A stretch of DNA of 34,968 bases from Actinomycetota bacterium (GCA_018896525.1 JAHIMR010000054.1:1-34968), one strand, 5' to 3'; positions 4,887 to 30,639 are shown, counted from the stretch's first letter. The notes: generated by a model not told the origin, from the letters alone. Numbers and translations are program-made.

Positions 4887-6479
4887 GTGGCCGATGCACA
4901 GACGTCCGACCGGTTGGCTGACTATCTATCACTTGCCGCCCGGGACGTCCCCGAGAGGCCCGCTCTCATCTGTGGGGACATCCGGCTCTCCTACCGGGAG
5001 TACGCGGAGCAGGTTTCCCTGTTCGCCCGCGCCCTCCTGGCGCTGGGCCTCTCGCCGGGTGACAGGATCGCGCTGATGATGGACAACCAGGTCGAGCACC
5101 CGATAGCTTTCCTGGCGGCGGAGATGATAGGCGTTACGTCGGTGCTGATAAATAACCGCCTCCAGGCCGGAGAGTCGGCGTTCATCATCGATGACTCGGA
5201 GCCCCGCCTCATGGTGGTGGGAGAGAGGTTCGTTTCCGGCGAGGGCGCAGTCGAGATGCAGGAGATGCTCTCATCGCGGTTCGGCCCCGGCGCTGTGGTG
5301 GTGGCGGGTGGGCCCCCCGAAGGCGAAGCGTTCACCTCCTTCGATTCGGTGGCCCTCAGGGCGGCCGAGGCAGGCCCGGAGGACCTCCATGCGGCGGCTT
5401 CGGCCACGGGGCCGGACACACCGGTAGCGGTTATCTACACCTCGGGAACCACCGGCACTCCCAAGGGAGCCGTGCTCACCGAGCGCAACATCGTGTTCAA
5501 CCTTACCAGCTGGAGGGGGCGCCTGCCCGAGGGAAGGGACGCGGAGGTGGTTGCGGTGTTCTTCCCCCTGTTCCACTCAGGGGGCATGATAGGAGGCATC
5601 TGCGGGTCGGTGGTAAACCGGTTTACGGTGGTACTCGCCGACTTTGACATCGAGGACAGCCTCCGGCTGATAAGCGAGCACGATGTTACGGTTATGGGGG
5701 CGGTGGCCGCGATGACCGCGCTCCAGCTCAACCATCCCCGCTTCGATGAGTACGACTACTCCTCGCTGGAGTACCTCATCATGGGCGCGGGGCCGTGTCC
5801 CCCTGACATCCTCCGGGAGGTCAACAGCAGGATGGAGGCTGACGTCATCATCGGGTACGGGCTCACCGAGGGCACCATGGGGAACCTGATCACCACCCTC
5901 AAGGACGACACCGAGGAGCACAAGCTGAACACCATCGGGGTCCCCCTTCCCGGCGTCAAGGTAAAGCTCACGGACGGGAACCGGGAGGAGGTGCCCGACG
6001 GCATCGTGGGAGAGATAGCGGTTGGTGGGCCGACGGTCTTCGCCGGTTACCTCAACCGCCCGGACGCCACCAGGGACGCGGTAGACGACGAGGGCTGGCT
6101 GTACACCGGCGACCTGGCGACCCGTGACTCCGACGGCTACTACCGCATCGTGGGCCGCACCTCCGAGATGTACATCAGGGGCGGGGAGAACGTCTACCCA
6201 CGTGAGGTCGAGGAGGTCCTGTGCGAGCATCCCGAAATACTCCTTGCCGCTGTCCTGGGTATCCCCGACAGCGTCATGGGGGAGTCCGGCCGCGCCTACA
6301 TCCTGAAGGTGCCGACCTCGGAACTGACGGAGGAGAATGTCAAGGTGTACTGCGCCGAGCGCCTGGCGGGCTTCAAGGTCCCGAAACAGGTGGTGTTCAG
6401 GGAGATGCTGCCGCTCACACCGGTCGGCAAGGTCCTCAAGAAGGTGCTTGCCGAGGAGATAGAAAAGGAGTTCGAGTAA
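4887..6479 (+). CDS. AMP-dependent acyl-CoA synthetase/ligase (FadD-like fatty-acid--CoA ligase)
   Basis: The AMP-binding motif is IYTSGTTGTPKGAVLTERN. The second motif is YTGDLATRDSDGYYRIVGRTSEM. The C-terminal lysine lies in PLTPVGKVLKK. The start is a GTG at 4887, with an AAGGAGG RBS 8 nt upstream. Confidence 0.9.
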   Translation: MADAQTSDRLADYLSLAARDVPERPALICGDIRLSYREYAEQVSLFARALLALGLSPGDRIALMMDNQVEHPIAFLAAEMIGVTSVLINNRLQAGESAFIIDDSEPRLMVVGERFVSGEGAVEMQEMLSSRFGPGAVVVAGGPPEGEAFTSFDSVALRAAEAGPEDLHAAASATGPDTPVAVIYTSGTTGTPKGAVLTERNIVFNLTSWRGRLPEGRDAEVVAVFFPLFHSGGMIGGICGSVVNRFTVVLADFDIEDSLRLISEHDVTVMGAVAAMTALQLNHPRFDEYDYSSLEYLIMGAGPCPPDILREVNSRMEADVIIGYGLTEGTMGNLITTLKDDTEEHKLNTIGVPLPGVKVKLTDGNREEVPDGIVGEIAVGGPTVFAGYLNRPDATRDAVDDEGWLYTGDLATRDSDGYYRIVGRTSEMYIRGGENVYPREVEEVLCEHPEILLAAVLGIPDSVMGESGRAYILKVPTSELTEENVKVYCAERLAGFKVPKQVVFREMLPLTPVGKVLKKVLAEEIEKEFE

Positions 6480-6498
6480 GAGGAAAACGGCCGAGACA

Positions 6499-6523
6499 GA
6501 AGCCGGCAAGATGCCGGCGCTAC
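6499..6523. repeat. REP-like element, single copy (GAAGCCGGCAAGATGCCGGCGCTAC)
   Basis: It matches the dispersed consensus exactly. It lies in the 54-bp spacer between the acyl-CoA synthetase and gamma-CA-like genes. Confidence 0.7.
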
Positions 6524-6533
6524 GGGAGGAACG

Positions 6534-7076
6534 ATGGGCATCTTTGAGTTCGAGGGAAGGAAGCCGCTGGTGCCGGAGTCCTGTTACATAGACAGCACCG
6601 CCACCGTCATCGGCCTGGTGGAGATGGGCGAGGAGTGCTTCATAGGGCCCGGCGCCCGACTCAAGGGTGATTATGGCCGCATCGTGATAGGCGACTGCTC
6701 AAACGTGCAGGAGAACTGTGTCATTCACGCCCGGCCGGACTGTGAAGCGGTCATTGGCTCGAGGGTTACGGTGGGCCACGGGGCAATCCTCCACGGCCCC
6801 ACCATCGGCGATAACACGGTGATAGGCATGGGCGCGATCATCCCCGACTTCGTGGACATCGGCGAGAACTGCATCGTGGCGGAGGGTACGGTACTGACCA
6901 ACGGTACGGTCATTCCGCCCGGGAGTGTGGTCATGGGAATCCCCGGAAAGGTAAGAAACGAGCTTACCCCCGAGATGGCGATGTACCCGAAGATGGCCTC
7001 CGACGTCTACCGCGACATGGCGCACCGGTACAAAGAGAACATAAGGGAGATAACCCGTCGGGAGGCGTCGGAATGA
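6534..7076 (+). CDS. Gamma-class carbonic anhydrase family / hexapeptide-repeat (LbH) protein (PaaY/CaiE/YrdA-like)
   Basis: The 180-aa product has the gamma-CA-like N-terminus MGIFEFEGRKPLVPESCYIDSTATVIG. It also has repeated [LIV]G..x..x hexapeptide turns (IGDCSNVQENCVIHA, GHGAILHGPTIGDNTVIGMGAIIPD). A GGGAGGA RBS lies upstream. Confidence 0.85.
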   Translation: MGIFEFEGRKPLVPESCYIDSTATVIGLVEMGEECFIGPGARLKGDYGRIVIGDCSNVQENCVIHARPDCEAVIGSRVTVGHGAILHGPTIGDNTVIGMGAIIPDFVDIGENCIVAEGTVLTNGTVIPPGSVVMGIPGKVRNELTPEMAMYPKMASDVYRDMAHRYKENIREITRREASE

Positions 7077-17381: not shown

Positions 17382-19355
17382 ATGGGAGAAACAGTAACCG
17401 GAATCGTATTGGTGGTCGTGTTCCTGTTCATCGTCCTTATCCTTCCTTCCATCAGGAAAATCGGTGCCACCCAGGTCGGGCTTGTCACCAAACGCTTCAG
17501 CTTCAAGAAGCTCTCCGATGACAACCCGGTGGCGTTCAAGGGGGAAGCGGGCTACCAGTCCGAACTGCTCATGCCGGGCTTCCGGTGGAAGTTCTGGATT
17601 ATGTACCGGGTACAGAAGTTCCCCTGGGTGCAGGTGCCCGCCGATGAGATCGGGGTCGTCATCGCCCAGGTCGGCCTGCCCTTACCCATCGGCGCCAAGT
17701 CCGCTGTTTTCAAAAGTGAGTTCGCTAACTTCAGCGACCTGGAACTGTTCGTCGCCGGCGGCGGCCAGAAGGGCGTCCAGCGCCCGGTGCTTCCCCCGGG
17801 GAGCACCGCGCCGATACACCCTGTGGGCTTCCTGGTGCTCACCAAGTCCCAGGTGTACGGGGTGCCGATCATCTCTGAACTGGAGCAGTACATACTTGAG
17901 CACGGGCGGCTGACACCAGAGGCATTCGGGCTGCTCCCCATGCAGTGCGAGCTGGTCAGGATAGTCCCCCAGCCGGGTGGCCCGGACGGAGGGCTGGTGG
18001 ACATGGTTGGAATCGTGACCACCTACGAGGGCGATCCGCTGCCGCCGGGGGACATCGCCAGCCGCCTGGGAGGGTTCGCCGACCTTGAACATACCGAGGC
18101 CGAAGACGCTCCCGACCCGGAACTCGTGGAGACGGTCCTGGGGAGCAAGAACAACCTGCACAACAACTACCAGGATTACCAGGCGTTCCTGGACAACGGG
18201 GGCCGGATCGGCCTGCAGCACGACCCGCTGCTGTACGGAGCCTACGCGCTGAACCCGTTCCTGGTCAGCGTTGAACTGGTGCCGATGCTGGTGGTCGAGC
18301 AGGGGCAGGTGGCGGTCATTAAGGCCTACGTGGGCCTCGCCACCATGGACACCTCCGGCGCCGGCTTCAAGTTCGGTTCGCTGGTCCGCCCCGGACACCG
18401 GGGCATCTGGGAAGAGCCGCTTCGCACCGGGAAGTACCCCATCAACCCCCGGTGCTACCAGGCGGAGATAGTCCCCACCGAGATAATCACCCTCAACTGG
18501 GCCGAGGCGGTCTCCGAGGCCCACCACCTGGACCGGCAGCTAAGCCAGATAATCGGTAAGAGCAGGGAGGGCTTCATTTTCGCCATCGACCTCCAGGTGC
18601 AGATACACGTCCCCGACACCAGGGCGCCGAAGGTGATATCCATGGTGGGAACGATGCAGAACCTGGTCAACGAGGTGCTCCAGGCGGCGGTGGGCAACCA
18701 CTTCAGGGACAAGCTCCAGAGCATGCCCGCGGTCCTGTTCATCGAGACCCGCCAGGAGGTCCAGGAACAGGCCTTTGAGTACATAAGGGCCAAGCTGGAT
18801 GATTACGAGGTGGTCACCCGGGGAGTCTATATACAGGACGTGGTGTTCCCCGAGAGAATGGTCAAGGTGCTCACCGAAAGAGAGATAGCCCACCAGGAGA
18901 TAGAGACCTACCAGAAGCAGAGGGCGGCGCAGGAACAGAGGATAGAGACGGAGCAGGCCAGGGGAACCGCCGATATGCAGGCCGACCTGGCGAAAGCCAA
19001 GGTCGGTGTCGACATAAAGACCAACGACGCCAAGGCCAGGAAAGCGGAGGCCGACGGCGAGGCGACCTACATCCGCGAGACCGGGGCCGCCATGGGCGCC
19101 GAGGTCGAGGCGGTAGGCATGGCCCGTGCCAAGGCGTACCTGGCCCAGGTCGAGGCGCTGGGCAGCGTCCCCACCGCGGTGGTCAACGCTGTTGACGCCC
19201 TCTCCCGCAGCGGCGAGCGGTTCGTTCCCGAGATCCTTGTCGCCGGAGGCGGTGGCGGTGGCGTTCTCGAAGGGCTCGCGGCTCAGATAATGAAAGCCAT
19301 CGGCGTCAGCCAGGCCGAAAAGGCGGAGGACACCCCGCCGCCGGACACGATTTAA
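17382..19355 (+). CDS. Flotillin-family SPFH/band-7 protein
   Basis: It has an N-terminal TM helix, an SPFH domain, and a long Ala/Glu/Gln-rich coiled-coil flotillin tail (EREIAHQEIETYQKQRAAQEQRIETEQARGTADMQADLAKAKVG...). An AAAGGAG RBS lies 7 nt upstream. Confidence 0.85.
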   Translation: MGETVTGIVLVVVFLFIVLILPSIRKIGATQVGLVTKRFSFKKLSDDNPVAFKGEAGYQSELLMPGFRWKFWIMYRVQKFPWVQVPADEIGVVIAQVGLPLPIGAKSAVFKSEFANFSDLELFVAGGGQKGVQRPVLPPGSTAPIHPVGFLVLTKSQVYGVPIISELEQYILEHGRLTPEAFGLLPMQCELVRIVPQPGGPDGGLVDMVGIVTTYEGDPLPPGDIASRLGGFADLEHTEAEDAPDPELVETVLGSKNNLHNNYQDYQAFLDNGGRIGLQHDPLLYGAYALNPFLVSVELVPMLVVEQGQVAVIKAYVGLATMDTSGAGFKFGSLVRPGHRGIWEEPLRTGKYPINPRCYQAEIVPTEIITLNWAEAVSEAHHLDRQLSQIIGKSREGFIFAIDLQVQIHVPDTRAPKVISMVGTMQNLVNEVLQAAVGNHFRDKLQSMPAVLFIETRQEVQEQAFEYIRAKLDDYEVVTRGVYIQDVVFPERMVKVLTEREIAHQEIETYQKQRAAQEQRIETEQARGTADMQADLAKAKVGVDIKTNDAKARKAEADGEATYIRETGAAMGAEVEAVGMARAKAYLAQVEALGSVPTAVVNAVDALSRSGERFVPEILVAGGGGGGVLEGLAAQIMKAIGVSQAEKAEDTPPPDTI

Positions 19356-19432
19356 ATATAGGCTCAAACCCGCATCCGGGACCGCGCTGTTCCCCGTAGC
19401 GCGGGCATCCTGCCGGCATTCGTGGCCGTGAC

Positions 19433-19660
19433 ATGCCGCCTGGAAGGCGGCTACCCCCACCTCAATCCTCCCCCGGGAACCCCCCCCCCATCCTAACCTT
19501 CCCCCAACCCCTAAGACCCCCCATCCCGGCCTTCCCCCCAGTGGGGGGAAGGAGCGGAGGGGGAAGGAAGGGTCAGGGGGGAAGGAGCGGAGGGAAAGGG
19601 AATGCCGGCAAGGTGCCGGCGCTACGGGGTGGGGGAGGGGGGTAAGACCTCATCACTCGG
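19433..19660. repeat. Low-complexity tract: ~95 bp poly-pyrimidine (C-rich) followed by ~110 bp poly-purine (G-rich), centred on the perfect palindrome CCTTCCCCCC-AGT-GGGGGGAAGG. It contains two direct copies of GGGGGGAAGGAGCGGAGGG and an embedded REP-like unit.
   Basis: Seen directly in the sequence. The C-runs give i-motif potential and the G-runs give G-quadruplex potential on the same strand. A 10-bp perfect hairpin core has imperfect extended complementarity. The tract lies 80 bp downstream of the flotillin stop. Confidence 0.6.
19600..19625. repeat. REP-like element (GAATGCCGGCAAGGTGCCGGCGCTAC)
   Basis: It matches the dispersed consensus and is embedded in the G-rich tract. Confidence 0.7.
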
Positions 19661-19787: not shown

Positions 19788-20000
19788 ATGAGTCGCCGTG
19801 TACTGGTCATCATTATCTGCTCCCTGGTCCTGGCAGTATTAATCCTCTCGGCAAGCGCTGTCCAAGGCGAGGGTACATCTGTTTCGGTCAATATGACCAT
19901 GGCCAGGACGATACAGGTGGTGAACGGGGGCGAGTGCCGTTCGAACGTGCCGGTTGTTCGTCAGGTCTGCGGTGGGTTTGTTACTTTCATCTCCCGTTGA
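19788..20000 (+). CDS. Hypothetical small secreted protein (70 aa; signal peptide; two Cys)
   Basis: The N-terminus is MSRRVLVIIICSLVLAVLILSASAVQGE..., and the mature part contains ...GGECRSNVPVVRQVCGG... A GAAGGGGG RBS lies 8 nt upstream. It is convergent with the paralog cluster. There is no homology call, so it may be spurious. Confidence 0.35.
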   Translation: MSRRVLVIIICSLVLAVLILSASAVQGEGTSVSVNMTMARTIQVVNGGECRSNVPVVRQVCGGFVTFISR

Positions 20001-20044
20001 ACAACCTTCGGAGATCTAACTTGCCTGAACCCTGTTTGCGTTGT

Positions 20045-20998
20045 CTACTTTTCGCCCTTACTTTTCTTTCTCCGGCGCCCCACGAGCTTGAACAGTACGA
20101 ATAACACAGCGAGCGGGACAAGGAAGATGAGGAGCAGGGATGTCGGACAGGTGCTGAAACCGGCCGTCCCGGTCCTGGTGGTGTCAAGCTCCAACAGACT
20201 GGGCCCGTACCGGATGTCGACCTTGACGCTGTATGAGCCCAGCAGTGGAGGGTCGGGGATGACCCCCTGGTAGTACCGCTCGGAATCGGGCAATACGGTC
20301 ATCTCTTTCAGTTCCACCGTGCCGTGGCCCCACCCGAAGGAGGGAGTGTAGGTGAGCTTTCCCCTGATGGTGAGGTGTACGTTCCCCGTGTTCTTGAAGG
20401 CCACGCGATACTTCGGCGGTGACACGGGAAGTCGGAGGAGTTCTTTCGTGGGCCAGAACCACTTGCTCTCAACGGAGACCGATGTTATTTCACCTTCTCG
20501 CAGTATCTCTCCCGGGATGGTAATGAGTGCCAGGGAGGCTATCTGTATAACGTCGGTGCCGCGGTGGGACGTAGCGTCGGTGGTCTCCGGAACCTGCCGA
20601 AAGAGGACCGCCCCGAAGTGCCCCCCCGGCTCCGCGTCGGGCGGTGCGGTGGCGGTGAACCTGCTGACTACCCTCTGTCCCGCCGGCACCGTGAACTCCG
20701 GAACGTCGACGGAGAGCCATTTGGCACAGGAGTACGGGTAATGTCCCGGCTCCTCGAACACGCAGGTGCCTTCGGGCTTGACGTAGAAATCCATAAAATG
20801 GAGTGCAAGCCGCTGGTCCGCGGTGCCGCGGTTTTCGACGTAGATCTCAAACTCCCGCGAGGTGCCCGGTTCCATTGTGAGTTCGAACTTGACCGGGGAC
20901 ACGGCTACGTTGAACTCCTGGGCAACGGCGTGGAGCGCCGGAGCGAAACAGGAGATAACCAGAAATATGAATGCCGAAACTGCCGCTGTCTTTCTCAT
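20045..20998 (-). CDS. Cell-surface protein, paralog C of the cluster. It has a signal peptide, a beta-rich ectodomain and a C-terminal TM anchor (DUF916/DufA-like architecture). It lacks the acidic tail.
   Basis: It is 317 aa. The signal peptide is MRKTAAVSAFIFLVISCFAPALHAVAQEF. Conserved blocks shared with the 421- and 429-aa paralogs are FEEPGHY.YSCA.WLS, PPDAEPGGHFGA, NTGNVHLT..GKLTYTPSFGWG and GSYSVKVDIRYGPS. The C-terminal TM LLLIFLVPLAVLFVLF is followed by RRRKKSKGEK*. The conserved terminal motif survives only out of frame downstream (19987..20070). Confidence 0.8.
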   Translation of the reverse strand: MRKTAAVSAFIFLVISCFAPALHAVAQEFNVAVSPVKFELTMEPGTSREFEIYVENRGTADQRLALHFMDFYVKPEGTCVFEEPGHYPYSCAKWLSVDVPEFTVPAGQRVVSRFTATAPPDAEPGGHFGAVLFRQVPETTDATSHRGTDVIQIASLALITIPGEILREGEITSVSVESKWFWPTKELLRLPVSPPKYRVAFKNTGNVHLTIRGKLTYTPSFGWGHGTVELKEMTVLPDSERYYQGVIPDPPLLGSYSVKVDIRYGPSLLELDTTRTGTAGFSTCPTSLLLIFLVPLAVLFVLFKLVGRRRKKSKGEK

Positions 20999-21015: not shown

Positions 21016-21046
21016 AGAAATCAAGAGGAGTTGCCTCTTGATTTCT
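21016..21046. promoter_or_regulatory. Perfect 13-bp inverted repeat AGAAATCAAGAGG-AGTTG-CCTCTTGATTTCT. It lies 18 bp upstream of the paralog-C start codon, between paralogs B and C.
   Basis: Seen directly in the sequence. No U-tract follows on the coding strand. It could be an operator or an RNA stem-loop (processing or attenuation). Confidence 0.4.
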
Positions 21047-21117
21047 GAATCCTCTGTCCTTTTCCGCGGGAGTTCACGCCTGCTGGTGTGAGGTCGTTGG
21101 TCATGTCGACGGTGGGA

Positions 21118-22383
21118 TTATTTCTTTCGTCCCCTCTTGAACAACCTTCGGAGATTCAACTTGCCTGAACCCCGTTCGCGGAGTTTCTCTTTTTCCCCGG
21201 GCTCTTTCTGTCCCTCGTCGTCGATGTCGTCTTGCTCACCGCCATCGCCGGAATCCTCGTCCCCGGGTATTTCCTCTTTCTCGTCCTCCAACAGTTCGGC
21301 CCAGAGCTCCTCCAGTCGCGGTTCCTTCTCGCCCCTTTCTTCCTTCTCGCCCGCTTCCACTTCAGGCGCTTTTTTCTTTCGTATGAAGAATCTTACCAAC
21401 TTGACCGCAACGACAGGAAGCGAGATAAGGATGATGAGTGCCAGAAGGAGGAAGGCCGGGTAGACGTTGAAGGCGGCGGAACCGGTCTTAGAAGTATCGA
21501 ACTCGTACATATTGGGGCCGTACATGACTTCAACCGTTACATCGTAGGACCCAAGGAAAGGTGGATCCGGAAGGGTCCCCTCGTAGTATCTCTTAGTGTG
21601 GGGCAAAATCACCATTTCGGGAAGCTGGATAGACCCCATTCCCCAGCCGAAAGAAGGAGTGTAGTACAGCACCCCTTTGGTGGTAAGGTGCACGTTACCG
21701 GTGTTATTGACTACCACCCTGTACCCGGGTGACGACCCTCCGATTACCGGTATCTTCTTGGAAGGCCAGAACCACTCGCTCTGGACCGAAACCGACTCTA
21801 TCTCGCCCTCCCTTACTATTAACCCCGGAATGGTTACCAATACCAGGGCGCCAACCCTGCCGGTTGACCGCACCACCGTTTCACCTTCCACCTCCGGTTG
21901 TAGAATTACTTCAAAAAATATGATGGCGTTATGAGTTCCCGGTTCCGCGTCGGGTGGGACCGCGACCGAAAACGGTATCGTCTCTTCCCGGCCCGCGGGT
22001 AACTCGAACTCCTTTATTTCCGTAGTAATCCACCTCGCGCAGGAAAAGGAGTAATGGCCGGGTTCCTCGAACGAAGTCTTGTTGTCCGGCGTTACCGTGT
22101 AATCCATTTCATAGACTCTTAACCGCAGGTCATTGGTGCTCTTGTTCAACAAATTGATATCAAGAGCCTGGGTGGTGCCGGGTTCTATCGTAAGCTCGTT
22201 TATGGATGGCCATAGCTTGATATCGAATTCCTGCGCAAAGCAGGGCGGACAATGGATGCCGGAAAGCCCCAGCGCGATACTGAGCATTATGGTAATCAGT
22301 ACCGGTTTCTTGATTTTCATGAACAAAGAACAACCGGGACCATTTTGGTCCCGGTTGTTGGGCTTGTTCTTACTCGTAGCCAC
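21118..22383 (-). CDS. Cell-surface protein, paralog B. It has a signal peptide, a beta-rich ectodomain, a TM anchor, a poly-acidic cytoplasmic linker and the conserved terminal motif GSGKLNLRRLFKRGRKK.
   Basis: It is 421 aa. The N-terminal region is MATSKNKPNNRDQNGPGCSLFMKIKKPVLITIMLSIALGLSGIHCPPCFAQEF. The real start may be the internal Met (MKIKKPV...). It has the same conserved blocks as the paralogs. The TM is FLLLALIILISLPVVAV, followed by KLVRFFIRKKK. The E/D-rich linker is about 90 aa, and the terminus reads ...GEKEKLRERGSGKLNLRRLFKRGRKK. Confidence 0.85.
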   Translation of the reverse strand: MATSKNKPNNRDQNGPGCSLFMKIKKPVLITIMLSIALGLSGIHCPPCFAQEFDIKLWPSINELTIEPGTTQALDINLLNKSTNDLRLRVYEMDYTVTPDNKTSFEEPGHYSFSCARWITTEIKEFELPAGREETIPFSVAVPPDAEPGTHNAIIFFEVILQPEVEGETVVRSTGRVGALVLVTIPGLIVREGEIESVSVQSEWFWPSKKIPVIGGSSPGYRVVVNNTGNVHLTTKGVLYYTPSFGWGMGSIQLPEMVILPHTKRYYEGTLPDPPFLGSYDVTVEVMYGPNMYEFDTSKTGSAAFNVYPAFLLLALIILISLPVVAVKLVRFFIRKKKAPEVEAGEKEERGEKEPRLEELWAELLEDEKEEIPGDEDSGDGGEQDDIDDEGQKEPGEKEKLRERGSGKLNLRRLFKRGRKK

Positions 22384-22409: not shown

Positions 22410-22937
22410 CTAAATCGCGGTTACGGTATAGACCTGGGTCGGAGTTAAGACCGGGAAAGCATAGGGGCCAGCCCATATATTGAAATCTTTGCTCAGTTGG
22501 AAGTTGAAATCCCAGCTCTTGACCCCTCGGTCTCCGTGGGCGAGTAGGACACCCATGTTAGCCTGGAAGCCTCCGGTCGCGACATCGAAGGTGACACCGG
22601 CGGACGGATTATTCTGCAGGAACGTGAACTGAGTATCACCGATAGTCCGCCCTGCAGCGGTTCCGGATCCCGTAAGGATGGGCGTGGTTGTCAACGTGAA
22701 GTTCCACAGCGTGTTGCTCTTTATTGCCACCGCGGAGGTCATTGTCGCGGTGGTCACTGGATCCGTCGGTACGATAGCGCCAAAATCAATAGCGGTAGGA
22801 GTCATAGTGAAATTGAGAGTGGGGCTGTAGGTCGCGGTAACCGTAGGACTCGCTGTCTGCGCAAATCCTCCAACCCCCATAAACGCGATTAGAAGGACAC
22901 CCGCGACAGCACTTGCGATAATAAGCCTCTTCTTCAT
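22410..22937 (-). CDS. Small secreted Thr/Ala-rich beta protein (175 aa), cassette partner of paralog B. It may be a WxL-like or pilin-like surface protein.
   Basis: The N-terminus is MKKRLIIASAVAGVLLIAFMGVGGFAQTA (signal peptide). The mature part is Thr-rich (...AVAIKSNTLWNFTLTTTP...NIWAGPYAFPVLTPTQVYTVTAI). It shares the blocks AVxxKSNxxW and a C-terminal aromatic/W motif with the 166-aa protein at 24691..25191. The start ATG is at 22937, with a GGAGGTG RBS. The long ORF extends to 22964. Confidence 0.75.
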   Translation of the reverse strand: MKKRLIIASAVAGVLLIAFMGVGGFAQTASPTVTATYSPTLNFTMTPTAIDFGAIVPTDPVTTATMTSAVAIKSNTLWNFTLTTTPILTGSGTAAGRTIGDTQFTFLQNNPSAGVTFDVATGGFQANMGVLLAHGDRGVKSWDFNFQLSKDFNIWAGPYAFPVLTPTQVYTVTAI

Positions 22938-22994
22938 TTCCGCACCTCCTGAATCTCTGACCATTTTACGGTCACCTATGAACTATAATTACAC

Positions 22995-23170
22995 ATTGAT
23001 TATAACGGCACTTATGCTCAGCTGTTACTGTTTGAAGGTATTAAGGAACGAACCGGTCATATGAAGTAACGAATGTACCGTGACGGGGAACGAATGACCA
23101 AATGGGGGATAAGAATATATCACCCGATCGGGGGATGAATCCACTCTTTTCCTTGTTTTTCCCCCGAGTG
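22995..23170 (-). promoter_or_regulatory. Conserved cassette leader, copy 1. It has three direct repeats G[GT]AACGAA at 21-bp spacing (23044, 23065, 23086), symmetric elements (GGTCAT...ATGACC, CCGTGACGG, CATATG), and a degenerate GC palindrome followed by a T-rich tract.
   Basis: It is about 80% identical to 25320..25495. It lies 60-230 bp upstream of the small secreted gene at 22937. Confidence 0.5.
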
Positions 23171-23235
23171 AGCGCACGCCTGGTGCCAGGCACCGTTGTT
23201 GCGGGCACCGTTGTTGCGTCATGCAGACGGTGGGC

Positions 23236-24525
23236 TTATTCCTTTCGTCCCCTCTTGAACAACCTTCGGAGATTCAACTTGCCTGAACCCCGTTTGTGGA
23301 GTTTCTCTTTTTCCCCGGGCTCCTTCTGTCCCTCGTCCCCGTTGTCCTCCCGCTCCCCGGCGTCGCCGGAATCCTTTTCATCCTCCTCTGGTAGCACCTC
23401 TTCCTCGACTTCCTCCCCTTCAGATACCTCTTCTCCCCCGGCTTCTTCCTTCTCCTCTTCTTGCTCTTCTTCGGGTTCTTCTTCTGGTTTCTCCTCCCAG
23501 ATAGTCGAAAATGATGTCCAGGATCTCTCTTCTGGCTCCTCCTTTTCCACCTCTTCTTTCCCCGGTGCCTTCTTACCCCGCTTCCGCTTGATGAACACAA
23601 CGGTAGCAGCAATCACCCCCAAGAGGACCAGCACCAGAAGGATTGCCAGAATAGGGTACGAGTTAAATCCGCAACTCATGGTCTTGGTCGTATCAAACTC
23701 AAAGAGGCTGGGGCCGTAAGAGATTTCGGCCTTCAGCTTGTACGAGCCAAAAAGCGGCGGTTTCGGTATTTCTCCCTTAAAATTCCTGGTGGTCCCGGGT
23801 AGCACCGTCGTCTCGGGCAGGTCGATGGTGCCAACTCCCCAGCCGAAAGAGGGTCTATAGGTCAGCTTACCCATAATGGTGAGATGGACGTTCCCCTTGT
23901 TTTCAAAGACCACGCTGTAACGAGTCGGTGAACGGGGAAAAACAGGAAGCCGACGAGTTGGCCAGAGCCAGTTGCTGGTTGCCGAAACCGACTTTATTAC
24001 ACCATCGCGTACTATCTCCCCCGGAACGGTAATCAAGACCATTGCGGCGATGCGGGCTGAGACCTTTACGGGTTCCTCCGCTTCTTCGGGGGCGGCCTGC
24101 TGGAAGATTATAGCCCCGTAGTGCCCACCCGGTTCCGCTTCGGGCGGGACATGCAACCCGAAGGTCTTGGTCGCGCTACTGGTCTCCGCCGTACCGCGAC
24201 CAGGTAACGTGAGTTCGGGGGTCTCGGTGGAGAGCCAGGTAGCACACGAATAAGAGAAATGCCCGGGCTCTTCGTAGACGACAGTGTTGTCGGGCTTCAC
24301 GTAGTAGTCCATGAAGTAGACATCGAGAGCATGGCTCTTTTCGGTGAAGTTTTCAACAGTTATATCGAACTCACTGGAAGCACCCGGATCGGCGGTGAGC
24401 TCCAGCTTGGAGGGAGAAACTCTCACGTGGAACTCTTCCTGGGCGTAGGAGACGGTCGCCGGGAGCGAGATTGAAACGATGAGCGCCAGTAGCAGTGAAA
24501 GCGCGGCTTTTTTCATGGTCTTCAA
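23236..24525 (-). CDS. Cell-surface protein, paralog A. It has a signal peptide, a beta-rich ectodomain, a TM anchor, a poly-acidic cytoplasmic linker and the conserved terminal motif GSGKLNLRRLFKRGRKE.
   Basis: It is 429 aa. The signal peptide is MKTMKKAALSLLLALIVSISLPATVSYAQEEF. It has the conserved paralog blocks. The TM is ILAILLVLVLLGVIAATVVF, followed by IKRKRGKK. The acidic linker reads (EEKPEEEPEEEQEEEKEE...). The last ~80 nt are almost identical to the 3' end of paralog B. Confidence 0.85.
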   Translation of the reverse strand: MKTMKKAALSLLLALIVSISLPATVSYAQEEFHVRVSPSKLELTADPGASSEFDITVENFTEKSHALDVYFMDYYVKPDNTVVYEEPGHFSYSCATWLSTETPELTLPGRGTAETSSATKTFGLHVPPEAEPGGHYGAIIFQQAAPEEAEEPVKVSARIAAMVLITVPGEIVRDGVIKSVSATSNWLWPTRRLPVFPRSPTRYSVVFENKGNVHLTIMGKLTYRPSFGWGVGTIDLPETTVLPGTTRNFKGEIPKPPLFGSYKLKAEISYGPSLFEFDTTKTMSCGFNSYPILAILLVLVLLGVIAATVVFIKRKRGKKAPGKEEVEKEEPEERSWTSFSTIWEEKPEEEPEEEQEEEKEEAGGEEVSEGEEVEEEVLPEEDEKDSGDAGEREDNGDEGQKEPGEKEKLHKRGSGKLNLRRLFKRGRKE

Positions 24526-24690: not shown

Positions 24691-25191
24691 TCAGTTGCTG
24701 GCGGTATAGGTGTGACTACAGGTGTAGTTAGCGGCCACCTCGAGAAGCCACGCAGCCGCCGGCGTCAGGTCGACCTTGTAGGTGAACTGGCCGTCGAGAT
24801 AAGTTCCCCTTGCACCACTCAGGCATGTACCCGCGATGGTGGGGTATTGAAGGTTGGTGACTCCTGTAGCCCCAGTCGCAGTCGTGGTCAAAGTGAAGTA
24901 GGACGAGGGTATCGTATTTAGACCAGACGTCAGCAAGCCGCCCGTGCTCACCGTAACCGTCCAAGCAGCGTTACTCTTTACCGTTACCGCGAGAACATTG
25001 GTTTGCGAGGTGCCCGGGATAGCAGTAATGGCTGCGGTGCTGGGTATCGAGAATTCAAGCGCCGGGGCAATCCCAACAGTTGGCGTCACGGGGGCGGCTC
25101 CAGCCACCCAGGCTCCCATAAACATAGACAACACAAGCATTCCAACCAGTGTTACACCAGCCAATACGCAAAACTTATGTACCTTCTTCAT
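24691..25191 (-). CDS. Small secreted Thr/Ala-rich beta protein (166 aa), cassette partner of paralog A
   Basis: The N-terminus is MKKVHKFCVLAGVTLVGMLVLSMFMGAWVAGAAP (signal peptide). It contains ...AVTVKSNAAWTVTVSTGG...PAAAWLLEVAANYTCSHTYTASN. It is paralogous to 22410..22937. A GGAGGTGA RBS lies 7 nt upstream. Confidence 0.75.
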   Translation of the reverse strand: MKKVHKFCVLAGVTLVGMLVLSMFMGAWVAGAAPVTPTVGIAPALEFSIPSTAAITAIPGTSQTNVLAVTVKSNAAWTVTVSTGGLLTSGLNTIPSSYFTLTTTATGATGVTNLQYPTIAGTCLSGARGTYLDGQFTYKVDLTPAAAWLLEVAANYTCSHTYTASN

Positions 25192-25319: not shown

Positions 25320-25495
25320 CCATTACAACGGCACTTGCGTTCCGAGGGTGTAGTCCTTGAAGGCATTAAGGAACGAACAGGTCATATGAAGGAACGAACG
25401 TACCGTGACGGGGAACGAATGACCTCATGGGGTGATAAGAATTCATCCCCCAATCGGGGGATGAATCCACTCTTTTCCTTGTTTTCCCCCTTCTT
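25320..25495 (-). promoter_or_regulatory. Conserved cassette leader, copy 2. It has GGAACGAA x3 at 25370, 25391 and 25412 (21-bp period) and the 12-bp-stem palindrome GAATTCATCCCCC-AATC-GGGGGATGAATCC (25439-25468) with flanking T/U-rich runs.
   Basis: Seen directly in the sequence. It aligns with 22995..23170. It lies 130-300 bp upstream of the small secreted gene start at 25191. Confidence 0.5.
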
Positions 25496-25520
25496 GAGCG
25501 CGGGCGTCGGCCCGCGTCCG

Positions 25521-25588
25521 GGGAACGGTTGCCGGCGGGATGCCGGCGCTACGGAAAACGGGGAATGCCGGCAAGGTGCCGGCGCTAC
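25521..25588. repeat. Two tandem REP-like units, 8 bp from the stop of the 1643-aa gene
   Basis: The units are GGGAACGGTTGCCGGCGGGATGCCGGCGCTAC and GGAAAACGGGGAATGCCGGCAAGGTGCCGGCGCTAC. They sit in the same position relative to the gene 3' end as the 6-unit array at 812-1024. Confidence 0.8.
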
Positions 25589-25596
25589 AAGGGGAG

Positions 25597-28500
25597 CTAT
25601 TCCCCGTATCCACCGATGGTGCAGGTTCCCGCTCCCCGGTCGTTCCAGTACATGGCCCGCTCGGCCATTATCTTCGCTCCAGCGGTCTTGCAGGTAACCA
25701 CTATAGCGGCCTGGCCGTCGGGAATCTCGTCCGCCATGTTGAAGGTGGCACGGGAACCGGCGGCAACCGTGGCGGTGAAGGTGGCGTTATTGGTGCCGTC
25801 GGGTGTCAGGTAGGTTACCTCCACCTCCACGGCGGTATCGTTGGGGTTGGCCACCAGGGTGTACGTCTCGTGCCCGTCAGCGGTCTTCCCGTCGGGCAGG
25901 TAGAACGTGGTGTGGGGCCCGGCCAGGCCCACGGTGTCGTGGGACGCCTCTCCCAGGGGTGTGTCGGCTCCCCAGTACATTGCCCTCTCGGCGACTATCG
26001 GTTTGTCGGCGCTCACGGCAATGGAGAAGTCGGTGTCGGGGAGTACGTCGTTGACCCTTATGGTCTCCCTGGAGTCCGGTGGCATTTTGAACGGGGGCTG
26101 GGGCACCGGTCCCCCGCCGGTCATGTAGGTGACGGTCACCCGCGCCTCGCTGTCGCCCGGGTTCTGTACCAACAGGTAGGTCTCAAAGCCGTGGGCGCAT
26201 GTGCCCTCGGCCAGATAGTAGTCGGTCTCGGGGGTGGTCGCCCCGATTGAGTCGTGGCCCTCCCGCCTGCTGTTCCGGTACATGCTCCTCTCGGGGATTA
26301 CGGGCAAGTCGGAGTCCACCTTGATGGAGGCGTTCCTCTGCCCGATGTCATCCGCCATGTTGTAGGTGGCCCGGGAGTTGGCCGGTATCTTCTTCTCGAA
26401 CGTCTTCGACTCGGCCGCGCCGGTGGCGTCCTCCCCTGTCATGTAAGTGACCTGGCAGGTCGCATCGGTGTCGTTGGGGTTCTGTACGAGCAGCCAGGTC
26501 TCGAAGCCGTAAGCGCTGCACCCCTCGGGGAGGTACCAGGTCTCCGCGGGGGCGTTCACCCCTATCGAGCAGTGGCCGTCAGGGGAGAGTGCTCCCTGGC
26601 CGGTCCACCACATGGTGCGGTCCACCGCTATCGCCTTTCCCTCGGCGCAGACGACCCGGCATGAGAAGTCGGTCTCGAACGGTAGGTCGTTCGCCGGGGC
26701 TACGGACGTCTGGGAGAGGGCGGGCAGCAGGAGCGGGTCCCTCTGTACCGGGCCGTCGGGGGTCATGTAGGTGACGTCTGCGGTAACGTCCTCGTCGTTG
26801 GGGTTCATCAGTGTTATGTAGGTGTTGAAGCCCCAGGCGGTGGTGCCCTCGGCCAGGTACCAGCGCGAGAGTTCGGATGGTTCTTCTCCCGGAAGAGCTA
26901 CCACGAACCGGGACAAGCCCCCCACTTCCGCTGTCAACCTGTCGGCCTCGGTGTCCCTGCTCTTTGTGCGATCGACCCAGCTTCCGCTCTCTTCATGGAG
27001 TATCACCAGTCGGGATTCCTCTTCCGGTGATAAGCCGGAATCAGGGTAGGACAGGGTGACCCTGACGTTTCCACTGTATGTCGCGGTGGTCGAGACGTCC
27101 CGGCAGGTTCCCCGGACCACCAGGTAGCCGCCTGTCCCGGGGTCCGGCTTCTCGTCCGAGGTGGTGATTCCCGCGGAGGTAACCCGGTCAAACTCGACCG
27201 TTGTGGCTGAATCGGGGTTTACCTTGACGCCGGTTCCCTCGGGGGTGTTTACAACGGCGAAACCACCGGCAAGGGCGCGGGGCGTTTCGTTCCCGGATAC
27301 CAGGTTCACATCCCGTCCCCCCAGGGACGCGTTTGGCGAGATGGTGATGTTAGCGGTTGCTTTGTCAGGTTGGATATCTTTTATGTAGTTGACCGCTATC
27401 CCCTCTCCGAAGCCGGCCTGGCCCGAGAGGTCGAAGTGGGTTTCATTTCCTTCAATGATGACATCCCCGGTCCAGCCGGGCAGGCCGTACGAGGCTTCAG
27501 TGCCGGTAATAGCCGGGTCGGGGCCCACCATGAAGCCACCCGCCAGGGGGACTGCCTCCTCGGCACCGGTCACCACGCTGATGTCCCGCGGCCCCCGGGC
27601 GGCATAGGGATCGATGGTGATCTGGACACGGAGTTTGGTGTAGTCAAAAATCTGGAGGCTGCCCGGGACAACGGCAATACCTTCCCCGAAATCGACAACG
27701 CTGGAACCGTTGAAGTGTGTATACGCTCCAACCACCTCCACCGTCATGGTCTGGCCGGGATTTCCCCAGGTAGGATAACAACGCTTGATGAACGGCGGGT
27801 CGCAGTACAGGATCGTGCCGCCGTCTCCAACCGCCCAGATGTTGCTGGTGTCGAAGCCGTCGACGCCGTTGAGTTGCACCGTTACCGGACTCTCCTGGGG
27901 GGCCCATGCAGAGCCGTTGTAGAAGAGTATGGTGCCGCCGTCGCCCACAGCCCAGACGTGGGTGCCGTCCACGGCGGACACGCCGCGCAGGGTGACGGTT
28001 GTTCCGCTCGCCTGGGGGGTCCAGTTGGTCCCCCCGTCGGAGGTGTACAGGATGGTGCCGCTGGCCCCCACCGCCCATACTATGGAGGTTGAGAGGGCCC
28101 GGACCCCGTGGAGGTTGGCGGTGGTGCCGCTGGTCTGGCTGCCCCAGGCAACGCCGTCCGTCGTCCTATATATCCTGCCCTCGTTGCCCACCGCCCAGAC
28201 GTAGAGGGTGGAGGCGGCGGAGACCGCGTTCAGGGGCCTGTCGGTGATGTCGTCGTACTGTTTAGACCAGGTACCAGCAGGAGGAGGGGTTTTCCAGAGC
28301 CAGATGTTTCCTATCGAGGTGACATCCCAGATACGGTTGGTCGCCGGGGCCGTCACCCCGGTGTTGGATTCGCCGGCGGAGGTCGCCTTGAGGGCCCACG
28401 TGCTTCCGTTGAAGTAGAGGTCCTCGCCCCTCGACAGGGACGGGTTCCACCCCACCGCCCAGGCGAAGGTCGTGTTGACGGCGGAGACGGCGTTCAGGTT

Positions 28501-30459
28501 GACGGCGGTGGGGCAGGACTGTGGTGTCCACGTCTCGCCGCCGCTGGACGTGTACTGTATGGCGCTGTTGTCGCCCACCGCCCAGACCACGTCCGTGCTC
28601 AAGGCGTCCACGCCCCGGAGGTTCTCGGTGGTCCCGCCGGAGAGCGCGGACCAGGCAGAGCCGCCGTTGAAGAGGGCGGTGCCGGCGTCCCCCACCGCCC
28701 AGGCGCTGTTCGCGTCAAAGGCGGAGACGCCGCGCAGGGCCACGGCCGTGCCGCTGGCCTGCGGTCCCCAGCTCGTGCCGTTGTAGTGGCGTATGGTGCC
28801 GTTCGCCCCAACCGCCCATACACAGTTGGCGGCGGCCGCGCTCACGGCGTTCAGGTTCACAGCGGTCCCGCCGTCCTGCACGCTCCAGGAGGTTCCGTCG
28901 AAGAACAGGACGGTGCCGGTGTCTCCCACCGCCCAGACGTGGGTGCTGTCCACGGCGGACACGCCGCGCAGGGTCACGGCCGTTACGCTCGCCTGGGAGG
29001 CCCAGTTGGCCCCCCAGTCGGAGGTGTACAGGATGGTGCCGCCGGCCCCCACCGCCCAGGCGCTGCCGGTGGAGAGGGCGCTTACCCCGTAGAGGTTCTG
29101 CGCGGTGCCGCTCGCCTGGGTGCCCCAGTTGGTGCCGCCGTTGGCGGTGTAGCGTATCATTCCGGTCGCCCCCACCGCCCACACGTGGCTGGTATCCAGC
29201 GCGACGATATCGTAGAGCGGGTAGTCTATGTTCAACTGGGTGGTCCAGCTAACGCCGTCCCACTTGTATATCCACCCGTCCTCGTCCACAATCCACACGC
29301 TGTTGCTGGCCGCGGCAGCGACGCTGACTATCGAGTAGCCTGTCAGGGTCGCGCGCAACGACCACGAACCGCCATAATACCGCAAGACCTCCCCTCGCGT
29401 CAGTGCCGCGTTCCAGCCGACCGCCCAGGCCTCGTCCGCGCTTACCGAGTCCACGTCCAGGATGTTGGCGGTGGTGCCGCTGGCCTGTTCGGTCCATCCC
29501 CCTCCGCGGGAGAAGAGGAACTTTTCCGAGCCCACGGAGTAGACATGGGTGGAATCCAGGGCACAGACATCGTATAAGTCCTGGGTGGTGCCGGAGGGCT
29601 GTTCGGTCCAGGACACGCCGTTATAGTAACTGATCTTTCCGTCCCATCCCGATACCCAGACATTGCTGTTGCTCAGGGCGGAGATGTTTACGGGCCAGTA
29701 ATCATAAAGTCCGGTACTTTCCCAGGTCACTCCTTTGTTGCTGGACTTGAGAACCTCGCCCCACCAGGTTATGGACCAGATGTCATTAGCGCTGCAGGCC
29801 GAGACCATGTAAGGGTCGTGGTCATCGGGACCTCCACCCGGATTTACCACCTGCCAGCTGGTACCGTTGTAGTAGTGGGTCTCACAGTCCACGGCCCAGA
29901 CGTTGTTCGCGTCATAACCGGAGATATCCACCAGCCCGCCGGAAGGGTAGGTGTACTGAACGCTCCAGGAAGTACCGTTATAGGCGAGGATCGTCGCGTT
30001 CGTAAAACCGTTGGAGTCACACACGGCCCAGACGTACGGGGTTCCAGGGGCCAATTGCGGGGTGGCCCAGACCGCCTCCAGGTCATATGCGGTGACGCCT
30101 ATTCCCTGCTTGCTCCAGCTGGTTCCGTTGTAGTACAGGATGGTGCCGGCCTCGCCAACCGCCCACACGTTAGTCGCGTCAAGGGCGTGGACGCCATTCA
30201 GGTTATAGGTTGAGCTGCTGTACTGCCGCCCGAGAGTGGTTCCGTTGTAGAAAAGAATAGCTCCACCAGCCCCTACGGCCCAAACATGTGTTGAGTCGGC
30301 CGCGGACACGCTGCCACTGTACTGTCCTTCGGGAAGGGGGTTCTGCTTTATCCAGGTGTAGTCGTCCCCGGCAAGGCATTCCGCGCTCATCGAGAATATA
30401 AGCGCGATGGTGATTATCGCTGCCAGGACCACAAGGCCCCTTCGATGCGCACCCATCAT
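25597..30459 (-). CDS. Giant secreted surface protein: about 21 BNR/Ycf48-like beta-propeller blades (probably three 7-bladed propellers), Ig-like/IPT domains, and 4-5 C-terminal repeats of the shared module
   Basis: The signal peptide is MMGAHRRGLVVLAAIITIALIFSMSAECLAG. A GGGAGAG RBS lies 7 nt before the ATG-ATG at 30459. The longer ORF extends to 30528. The blades read ...VWAVG..GTILYTSDGGTNW..Q.SGT...L.GVSA.D..... The C-terminal repeats (WYLAEGTTAWGFNTYITLMNPN...) are about 75-80% nt-identical to the 3' end of the subtilase gene. The protein ends ...ERAMYWNDRGAGTCTIGGYGE. Confidence 0.85.
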   Translation of the reverse strand: MMGAHRRGLVVLAAIITIALIFSMSAECLAGDDYTWIKQNPLPEGQYSGSVSAADSTHVWAVGAGGAILFYNGTTLGRQYSSSTYNLNGVHALDATNVWAVGEAGTILYYNGTSWSKQGIGVTAYDLEAVWATPQLAPGTPYVWAVCDSNGFTNATILAYNGTSWSVQYTYPSGGLVDISGYDANNVWAVDCETHYYNGTSWQVVNPGGGPDDHDPYMVSACSANDIWSITWWGEVLKSSNKGVTWESTGLYDYWPVNISALSNSNVWVSGWDGKISYYNGVSWTEQPSGTTQDLYDVCALDSTHVYSVGSEKFLFSRGGGWTEQASGTTANILDVDSVSADEAWAVGWNAALTRGEVLRYYGGSWSLRATLTGYSIVSVAAAASNSVWIVDEDGWIYKWDGVSWTTQLNIDYPLYDIVALDTSHVWAVGATGMIRYTANGGTNWGTQASGTAQNLYGVSALSTGSAWAVGAGGTILYTSDWGANWASQASVTAVTLRGVSAVDSTHVWAVGDTGTVLFFDGTSWSVQDGGTAVNLNAVSAAAANCVWAVGANGTIRHYNGTSWGPQASGTAVALRGVSAFDANSAWAVGDAGTALFNGGSAWSALSGGTTENLRGVDALSTDVVWAVGDNSAIQYTSSGGETWTPQSCPTAVNLNAVSAVNTTFAWAVGWNPSLSRGEDLYFNGSTWALKATSAGESNTGVTAPATNRIWDVTSIGNIWLWKTPPPAGTWSKQYDDITDRPLNAVSAASTLYVWAVGNEGRIYRTTDGVAWGSQTSGTTANLHGVRALSTSIVWAVGASGTILYTSDGGTNWTPQASGTTVTLRGVSAVDGTHVWAVGDGGTILFYNGSAWAPQESPVTVQLNGVDGFDTSNIWAVGDGGTILYCDPPFIKRCYPTWGNPGQTMTVEVVGAYTHFNGSSVVDFGEGIAVVPGSLQIFDYTKLRVQITIDPYAARGPRDISVVTGAEEAVPLAGGFMVGPDPAITGTEASYGLPGWTGDVIIEGNETHFDLSGQAGFGEGIAVNYIKDIQPDKATANITISPNASLGGRDVNLVSGNETPRALAGGFAVVNTPEGTGVKVNPDSATTVEFDRVTSAGITTSDEKPDPGTGGYLVVRGTCRDVSTTATYSGNVRVTLSYPDSGLSPEEESRLVILHEESGSWVDRTKSRDTEADRLTAEVGGLSRFVVALPGEEPSELSRWYLAEGTTAWGFNTYITLMNPNDEDVTADVTYMTPDGPVQRDPLLLPALSQTSVAPANDLPFETDFSCRVVCAEGKAIAVDRTMWWTGQGALSPDGHCSIGVNAPAETWYLPEGCSAYGFETWLLVQNPNDTDATCQVTYMTGEDATGAAESKTFEKKIPANSRATYNMADDIGQRNASIKVDSDLPVIPERSMYRNSRREGHDSIGATTPETDYYLAEGTCAHGFETYLLVQNPGDSEARVTVTYMTGGGPVPQPPFKMPPDSRETIRVNDVLPDTDFSIAVSADKPIVAERAMYWGADTPLGEASHDTVGLAGPHTTFYLPDGKTADGHETYTLVANPNDTAVEVEVTYLTPDGTNNATFTATVAAGSRATFNMADEIPDGQAAIVVTCKTAGAKIMAERAMYWNDRGAGTCTIGGYGE

Positions 30460-30639
30460 GCCAACTCTCCCTGCCCCCGGCATGGGGGCTTGCCTCCCTG
30501 CCCCGTTCAAAGGCGCCACCCAGACCATTCGTTGCTTCTATTATAGACTATATCGGTTGCTTCCGCTGTTATCTGTAACCTATAACGGCCGTGGGCCCTT
30601 TGCGGATACCCCCCGGCGAGTCTCCCACCCCATAGCACC

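Follow-up and report, generated by a model that had tools for sequence, protein, structure and literature searches.

Near-identical 3′ ends in two diverged WxLIP-like paralogs of an Actinomycetota bacterium: a probable case of gene conversion

WxLIP proteins have been described from the WxL gene clusters of Firmicutes, where they are described as combining a DUF916 and a DUF3324 domain with a transmembrane (TM) helix, without mention of a cytoplasmic region (PMC10599100); a WxL gene cluster is recognized by at least one WxLIP together with at least two WxL proteins (PMC10599100). Gene conversion between bacterial paralogs has been documented for paralog pairs (PMC6053082), rRNA operons (PMC8022953) and antigen families of M. 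tuberculosis (PMC13061034). Here, we analyze a stretch of 34,968 nucleotides from an Actinomycetota bacterium (GCA_018896525.1, JAHIMR010000054.1:1-34968; hereafter the window, from whose first letter all positions are counted unless another locus is named), which carries an array of three related genes for WxLIP-like surface proteins, termed paralogs A, B and C. The subject of this analysis is the 3′ end of paralog A, which is nearly identical to that of paralog B.

The pattern resembles known gene conversion between paralogs in that a short tract appears to have been homogenized within one genome, with low synonymous divergence inside and high synonymous divergence outside the tract, and in that the tree of the tract contradicts the tree of the gene remainder. 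It differs from the known cases because only the last ~120–200 nt of otherwise saturated genes are concerned, because the tract crosses the stop codon and because a single available genome contains both partners, so that rate and direction are poorly constrained. The process itself would be textbook concerted evolution, with a conversion tract of ~120 nt that can be recognized from its synonymous sites and its non-coding flank.

The shared 3′ end of paralogs A and B

The ungapped alignment of positions 21118–21205 with 23236–23323 (offset 2118) contains 84 matching bases out of 88 (4 mismatches, 95.5%), and within the interval 21125–21200, which an earlier, sequence-only reading of this DNA had pointed out, 2 of 76 nt differ from the B copy. 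The near-identity of the gene ends claimed there is thus confirmed, the encoded peptides are as that reading had written them, and the tract is larger than it had noted. Its statement that the rest of both genes has diverged substantially holds as well (~54% nucleotide identity and 45% protein identity, the latter being the value for the ectodomains). Apart from the high-identity tract and the perfect run listed in Table 1, a repeat search delimited the similarity to 158 nt at 90% identity and blastn to 204 nt at 84%. Past the stop codon, 15 of 18 bases are identical between A and B and similarity goes on to ~25 nt. The core 35-mer of the tract occurs three times in the window, compared with 0 occurrences expected by chance. 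On its other side the tract passes into a shoulder of weaker similarity (Table 1), which may mark how far an earlier exchange had reached or else reflect conservation of a motif.

Counting the divergence between A and B by region according to Nei and Gojobori separates the tail sharply from the remainder of the genes. The ectodomain (54% nucleotide identity) and the linker (60%) are saturated at synonymous sites, with a proportion of synonymous differences (pS) of 0.76 and ~1, respectively (0.76–0.99 outside the tail), and a nonsynonymous divergence (dN) of 0.496 and 0.318. The last 35 codons, in contrast, are 93% identical with a synonymous divergence (dS) of 0.069 and a dN of 0.070, corresponding to a dN/dS of ~1. 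Residues common to A and B share their codon in 29 of 30 cases within the tail and in 71 of 164 (43%) elsewhere (Fisher p = 9e-9), and the longest identical run of 53 nt compares with a mean of 14 and a maximum of 34 nt in 5000 permutations of codon columns. When A is compared with P0002, P0003 and P0004, its orthologs, the tail dS is 0.14, 0.14 and 0.52 and the ectodomain dS 0.29, 0.36 and 0.38. The ratio of tail divergence to ectodomain dN is 0.7–1.4 for the ortholog pairs and P0005, but 0.13 for A versus B. As judged by these synonymous and non-coding sites, the last ~120–200 nt of A and B, ~20 nt of non-coding flank included, have a much younger common ancestor than the remainder of the genes. 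Recent duplication of the whole gene followed by fast evolution of the ectodomain is ruled out as the origin of this pattern by the saturated synonymous sites of the ectodomain.

Neighbour-joining analysis of the last 108 nt places the B tail among the A-type tails, with a distance of 0.065 from B to A, while the A ortholog P0004 lies at 0.16–0.21. Since low tail dS, shared codons, the match past the stop codon and the conflicting tree point in the same direction, we consider it probable that homologous recombination, i.e. gene conversion or recombinational replacement, overwrote one 3′ end with a copy of the other. Of the two explanations that the sequence-only reading had offered, concerted evolution thus accounts for the near-identity of the nucleotides. 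The transfer probably brought an A-type tail into B, because the B tail nests within the A-type tails and because P0159, which at 66% identity by BLASTP is the nearest ortholog of B found, possesses an unrelated tail (..IRKWKRLFEPKSKQQ.. / ..IRKWKRLFEPKSKQQNKSDSEPNSDKY) without DNA similarity to that of B.

Several observations weigh against gene conversion in this form or limit what can be derived from it. The tract is short (~23 synonymous sites), which renders the dS estimates noisy, and the assignment of direction leans on P0159 as the single B ortholog. The distance of 0.065 between the tails of A and B is similar to the distances among A orthologs (0.056–0.074), so the event would not be very recent. 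Moreover, the related loci L003 and L124 show the order leader, small gene, A and C without a B unit; a conversion after the arrival of B and a crossover during its insertion are therefore inseparable. No genome besides the source was found to contain both A and B among the retrieved loci, most of which are single-copy.

The copy behind paralog C, the non-coding flanks and competing explanations

The sequence-only reading had also described a diverged copy of ~45 nt after paralog C. Such a copy exists, as the core 35-mer is found at 19997–20031 with 2 mismatches within a wider match of 106 nt at 74–77% identity, but it cannot serve as a third functional tail, being out of frame. The TAG stop codon of C and the frame of the copy are the same in L003, where the copy is split by an insertion of ~700 bp (5943–6690 of that locus) with a response-regulator gene (6192–6608, minus strand); the copy in the window is free of this insertion. 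Because it lies in the +1 frame behind the TAG stop and is split in L003, the copy after C appears to be a non-translated, out-of-frame relic. The tail of C would have been lost via a deletion in the linker and a frameshift. A programmed frameshift restoring the tail of C is unlikely, as L003 keeps both TAG stop and frame and the insertion splits the relic. Paralog C itself is under purifying selection, with a ratio of nonsynonymous to synonymous differences (pN/pS) of 0.40 relative to its L003 ortholog. As a separate observation at 1009–1195 of L208, the short-tailed homolog P0006, whose ectodomain is closest to that of P0005, is followed by out-of-frame remnants of an acidic linker after its stop codon (..KKEPEPVSGEKEKAEGA.., ..EGGSGD), so that P0006 may have lost a long tail independently.

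A stretch of ~40 nt behind the stop codon (CCCACCG..GAC.TGACGAACAACCGGCAC) is common to all copies, those of the distant locus L001 included. In the terminal unit of the array, its counterpart forms the 3′ end of a gene that runs in the opposite direction and encodes a 70-aa protein. This convergent gene is conserved in L003 (pN/pS 0.33) and in L001 and has, in the latter, an overlap of 20 nt with the genuine tail of P0005. For this reason, the flanks behind A and B are best read as relics: the unit that was duplicated in tandem reached into the 3′ end of the convergent gene, which thereby became the source of the post-stop sequence in each unit, and the alignment of the intergenic regions reveals the boundaries of such units. 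The original unit would have comprised leader, small gene, big gene, tail and ~40 nt of the convergent small gene, and the short homology remaining from it may have seeded the later exchange.

The alternative that fares best holds that B was born as a chimera when the array was built: a B-type cassette consisting of a small gene and a B ectodomain would have been fused to an A-type tail upon insertion of the B unit, by an unequal or inter-strain crossover in the 3′ end or the linker and without any later conversion. The absence of the B unit from L003 and L124 is in line with this view, and so are the conserved islands that bracket the units, i.e. the leader (86–92% identical) and the tail. 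In addition, P0004 and P0005 have similar acidic linkers although their ectodomains are A-type and B-like, respectively, and because of this likeness 3′ regions appear to have been transferred from one ectodomain type to another on more than one occasion. However, the chimera predicts the same sequence pattern as conversion, and the leader core is kept even in the very distant L001, which probably reflects function rather than exchange. Furthermore, the relic behind C and the non-coding flanks of A and B are still 77–82% alike in spite of the old duplication, which fits repeated exchange among resident copies. We thus regard an origin by chimera formation, without later conversion, as rather unlikely.

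A nucleotide-level cis element across the stop codon, such as an RNA hairpin, a terminator or a binding site for a small RNA or a protein, would account for the conservation that reaches ~40 nt past the stop in every copy including those of L001. A possible helix of 8 bp between GGTTGTTC (the RLF codons) and GAACAACC (the flank) is predicted in several copies, and the motif AACAACSG is enriched in the window (7 occurrences versus 2.3 expected). Yet the folding z-scores range from -2.7 to +0.3 and are mostly non-significant, one copy excepted, compensatory changes are seen at 0 of 8 pairs, and 3 of 7 copies cannot form the central pair. Rfam returned chance-level matches only (E = 0.12 and 0.22), far below the gathering score and outside the tail tracts, and the terminator scan found no site within the tail tracts. 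In the terminal copies the 3′ arm of the helix falls within the reading frame of the convergent 70-aa gene (..PVVRQV..), to which its conservation there is due. As the tail dS between orthologs is about as high as that of the gene remainder and hence not reduced, constraint at the nucleotide level is not indicated. In view of the weak folding, the lack of covariation and of any credible Rfam match, an RNA element was rejected as the cause, and a cis element of whatever kind seems improbable.

Purifying selection on the peptide alone, without recombination, could appeal to the conservation of the terminal motif at the protein level in distant relatives. Such selection would have left the synonymous sites of the tail as saturated as elsewhere, however, and is at odds with a dN/dS of ~1, a tail dS of 0.07, the identical codons at all but one of the conserved residues, the identical non-coding bases past the stop and the normal synonymous rates in the tails of orthologs; we therefore judge it very improbable. 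Local nucleotide identity of paralogs should accordingly be viewed with caution and not be taken as functional constraint. A faulty assembly in which repeats were collapsed or joined into chimeras, a concern already raised by the sequence-only reading and conceivable for a short repeat in a metagenome-assembled contig, is hardly credible, as fixed differences distinguish the copies, all three of them lie within the 20.8 kb over which a separate JGI contig (L125, sample 3300013392) matches at 99.976% identity, and orthologs with the same tail are present in contigs of other samples.

WxLIP-like architecture and the terminal cationic-aromatic motif

The AlphaFold2 (AF2) model of A, run on an alignment of 11 sequences, shows two confident beta-sandwich domains (ectodomain predicted local distance difference test score, pLDDT, mostly > 85) and a TM helix at residues 289–317, which is also backed by a hydropathy scan, whereas the remainder is predicted to be disordered (pLDDT ~30). 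The top Foldseek matches in the PDB are the E. faecium WxLIP structures 9i25_C and 9i1y (E = 2e-13 to 1e-11), and chaperone-usher chaperones rank behind them. Profile searches of A and B against NCBIfam and Pfam gave almost nothing: neither matches PF06030 or PF11797, and B yields solely a sub-threshold match to the unrelated PF15330 (SIT). C reaches 17.2 bits on PF06030 (WxLIP_PGBD; cut-off 27.3), and PF11797 (HBD) is without a match in C as well. A profile search with the family retrieved 11,466 cluster representatives, some distant ones of which pass the PF06030 threshold, and matches in genomes stem from metagenome-assembled genomes of Actinomycetota (Geothermincolia, Anoxymicrobiaceae, Solincola) as well as from Chloroflexota and Patescibacteria. 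On the basis of the predicted fold, A, B and C are assigned as distant WxLIP-like (DUF916/DUF3324) surface proteins, and their sequences indicate that they are old tandem paralogs in a metagenome-assembled genome of Actinomycetota. WxLIP-like surface proteins hence reach well past the Firmicutes into Actinomycetota, Chloroflexota and Patescibacteria.

With the WxLIP proteins of Firmicutes (PMC10599100; PDB 9i25, 9i1y), A and B share the signal peptide, two tandem Ig-like domains, the C-terminal TM helix and the clustering of their genes next to genes for small secreted proteins. They differ by their host, which belongs to the Actinomycetota and not to the Lactobacillales or Bacillales, and by Pfam scores, PF06030 staying below threshold and PF11797 being absent from A, B and C. 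Unlike in WxL clusters, the small proteins next to A and B carry no recognizable WxL domain. For these two proteins (Table 1), no credible profile match was obtained in Pfam, NCBIfam or PDB, the best ones being unrelated DUFs in Pfam (E = 0.05) and a nanobody in the PDB (E = 0.15), so these profiles lend no support to an identity as WxL domains; AF2 modelling of the small neighbouring proteins gave a pLDDT of 40 and was unusable. The most conspicuous difference from WxLIP as described is an acidic cytoplasmic tail of 90–140 aa with a conserved C-terminal motif behind the TM helix. Typical family members extend ~25 residues past this helix, compared with 91 in A and 119 in B, and one branch of the Actinomycetota seems to have added the long acidic tail with its conserved cationic end motif.

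Both tails are strongly acidic apart from their last ~18 residues, which hold the motif ...RGSGKLNLRRLFKRGRKK / GKLNLRRLFKRGRKK at the end of the long disordered linker. Actinomycetota relatives with long acidic tails and 40–50% ectodomain identity end in KRWFKGRRK, GRRFKERRK, RKWFKERRK, RWWLKERRK or RRLFKGKQK; further C-termini in this group read [KS][RK]LFDPED and PERLF, and P0167 of locus L129 contains LSRIFRRRAQRGK ~20 residues before its C-terminus. Since relatives this distant end in similar motifs, the motif appears to be ancient in the subfamily and older than the conversion. In short-tailed family members, the TM helix is followed immediately by comparable stretches of cationic amphipathic character, for example LRKIFSRDKKGRRKK, RAVRILFGKE and RERFSKILSVMFKG, and RERFSKILSVMFKG resembles the distal RKRILSVLKRF of P0015. 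From these sequences we infer that the terminal motif may be an ancestral juxtamembrane segment which was displaced by insertion of the acidic disordered linker, and that it would therefore probably still act at the inner face of the membrane. Among 1,953 open reading frames of the Actinomycetota loci examined, the motif is present exclusively on WxLIP-like genes, and a scan of metagenome contig DNA with GGTTGTTCAANNGGNNANNAAAG gave 117 matches, all attributable to chance and none with flanking similarity. A protein search with the tail alone yielded no candidate that had words in common with it. Selection on a C-terminal cytoplasmic signal, the second explanation offered by the sequence-only reading, which had suggested that such a signal could serve localization, secretion coupling or partner binding, is thus supported by conservation at the family level, as orthologs and Actinomycetota relatives carry similar C-termini, other relatives being devoid of them; it cannot, however, produce the nucleotide pattern, given that synonymous sites in the tails of orthologs diverge normally.

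With regard to function, the closest described counterpart is the terminal segment of E. coli MinD (..EEEKKGFLKRLFGG), an amphipathic membrane-targeting helix (PMC8155659). The MinD terminus, ..KKGFLKRLFGG, has the core L[KR]RLF in common with the motif of A and B. Like this membrane-targeting sequence (MTS), the motif is short, located at the extreme C-terminus, bounded by glycine and preceded by acidic residues, and combines cationic residues with the hydrophobic core. Unlike it, the motif is much less hydrophobic, carries a much higher positive charge and has no predicted helix. The best 10-mer of the tail shows a hydrophobic moment (muH) of 0.73, a hydrophobicity (H) of -0.08 and a charge of +6, as compared with 0.55, 0.40 and +3 for the MinD MTS. 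Moreover, MinD is a soluble protein that binds reversibly, while A and B are already integral to the membrane through their own TM helix. By analogy, the motif may possibly fold back on the anionic inner membrane face in an MTS-like manner, which we put forward tentatively; that it serves as a short linear motif recognized by a partner in the cytoplasm is a possibility to be held with similar reserve, and membrane return and partner binding are about equally plausible. Against these functional readings stand the low hydrophobicity just mentioned, the AF2 prediction of coil at the motif (pLDDT ~30) without a helix, the lack of the motif in C and several homologs, and the acidic residues that follow RLF in some relatives (KRLFDPED).

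Two more conserved islands, EPxPEE[RL]WxEL and DSGD[GA]GE, are found in the linkers (21223–21393 and 23341–23595) and recur in P0004, P0005 and P0008/P0163; the former is predicted to be helical in A at residues 337–345 (AF2: EELWAELLE). Both islands fit a disordered region with multiple motifs. It is conceivable, though doubtful at this stage, that linker, motif and islands together make up a cytoplasmic module, not described before, through which WxLIP-like proteins of Actinomycetota couple the extracellular complex to the inner membrane face or to a cytoplasmic partner, and that recombination at the 3′ module and at the leader swaps ectodomain cassettes between units or strains. A candidate partner is the conserved SPFH/flotillin-like protein encoded nearby. 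If the motif acts as a membrane-return or partner-binding signal, it would provide a handle on how wall-associated complexes are linked to the cell interior.

Coordinates and surroundings of the array

Table 1. Positions of the paralogs, the shared tract and its relics in the window
Feature	Position	Strand	Description
Paralog A	21118–22383	minus	421-aa open reading frame from GTG; NCBI annotation 400 aa, start MKIKK at 22320
Parts of paralog A			WxLIP-like; signal peptide, two beta-sandwich domains, TM helix 289–317 (400-aa form), 91-aa acidic cytoplasmic tail
Paralog B	23236–24525	minus	429-aa open reading frame; annotated 426 aa, start at 24516
Parts of paralog B			A-like architecture with 119-aa acidic cytoplasmic tail
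Paralog C	20045–20998	minus	317 aa, intact; cytoplasmic tail of just 11 aa (GRRRKKSKGEK)
High-identity (putative conversion) tract, A side	21100–21221	minus	last 34 codons, stop and 18 nt of 3′ flank
High-identity (putative conversion) tract, B side	23218–23339	minus	122 nt, 92.6% identical to A side
Perfect run of 53 nt	21124–21176 = 23242–23294	minus	encodes RGSGKLNLRRLFKRGRK
Shoulder	21222–21289	minus	acidic linker, ~70–77% similarity, carries DSGD[GA]GE
Post-stop flank of A	21093–21117	minus	CCCACCGTCGACATGAC..; non-coding, inside the similar tract
Post-stop flank of B	23210–23235	minus	CCCACCGTCTGCATGACG..
Pseudo-tail after the TAG stop of C	19987–20044	minus	+1 frame; would read ..KSRQRKQGSGKLDLRRLFNGR*
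Wider relic after C	19952–20057	minus	77% identical to A, 74% to B
Convergent small gene	19788–20000	plus	70 aa, N-terminal hydrophobic segment; 3′ end overlaps the relic
Small secreted-protein genes between the big genes	22410–22964 and 24691–25191

Upstream of the array, a protein of 1643 aa (25597–30528, minus strand) with Ycf48/BNR-like repeats and a DUF5719 region is encoded, beyond which Tad-pilus genes (TadE, prepilin peptidase, Flp-like) follow in L125 and L001. On the other side of the array lie the genes for an SPFH/Band-7 protein (17382–19355) and an EamA transporter, which are syntenic in L003. A perfect direct repeat of 28 nt, GGGAATGCCGGCAAGGTGCCGGCGCTAC, flanks the whole array at 19598–19625 and 25561–25588, with an inverted copy at 19392–19421, and could be a REP-like element or an island boundary.

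The leaders are located upstream of both small secreted-protein genes (23032–23175 and 25357–25501) and contain three direct TTCGTT[CA]C repeats spaced ~22 nt apart upstream of a promoter-like site (23028–22999, minus strand). Their core is kept in L124 and L003 in addition to L001 and is probably a regulator-binding region. Downstream of P0159, at ~5735–5770 of L206, a fragment like the 3′ end of a tRNA (..GGTCGCAGGTTCGATTCCTGC..) could be the remnant of an integration site. Between the stop codon of A and the start of C, a perfect stem-loop of 13 bp (AGAAATCAAGAGG ... CCTCTTGATTTCT, 21016–21046) without a following T-run is present, which is found in L124 too. A perfect hairpin of 14 bp (AACAACCGGGACCA/TGGTCCCGGTTGTT) at the 5′ end of A (22329–22359) lies within what may be an N-terminal extension, with conserved counterparts in P0002 and P0004.

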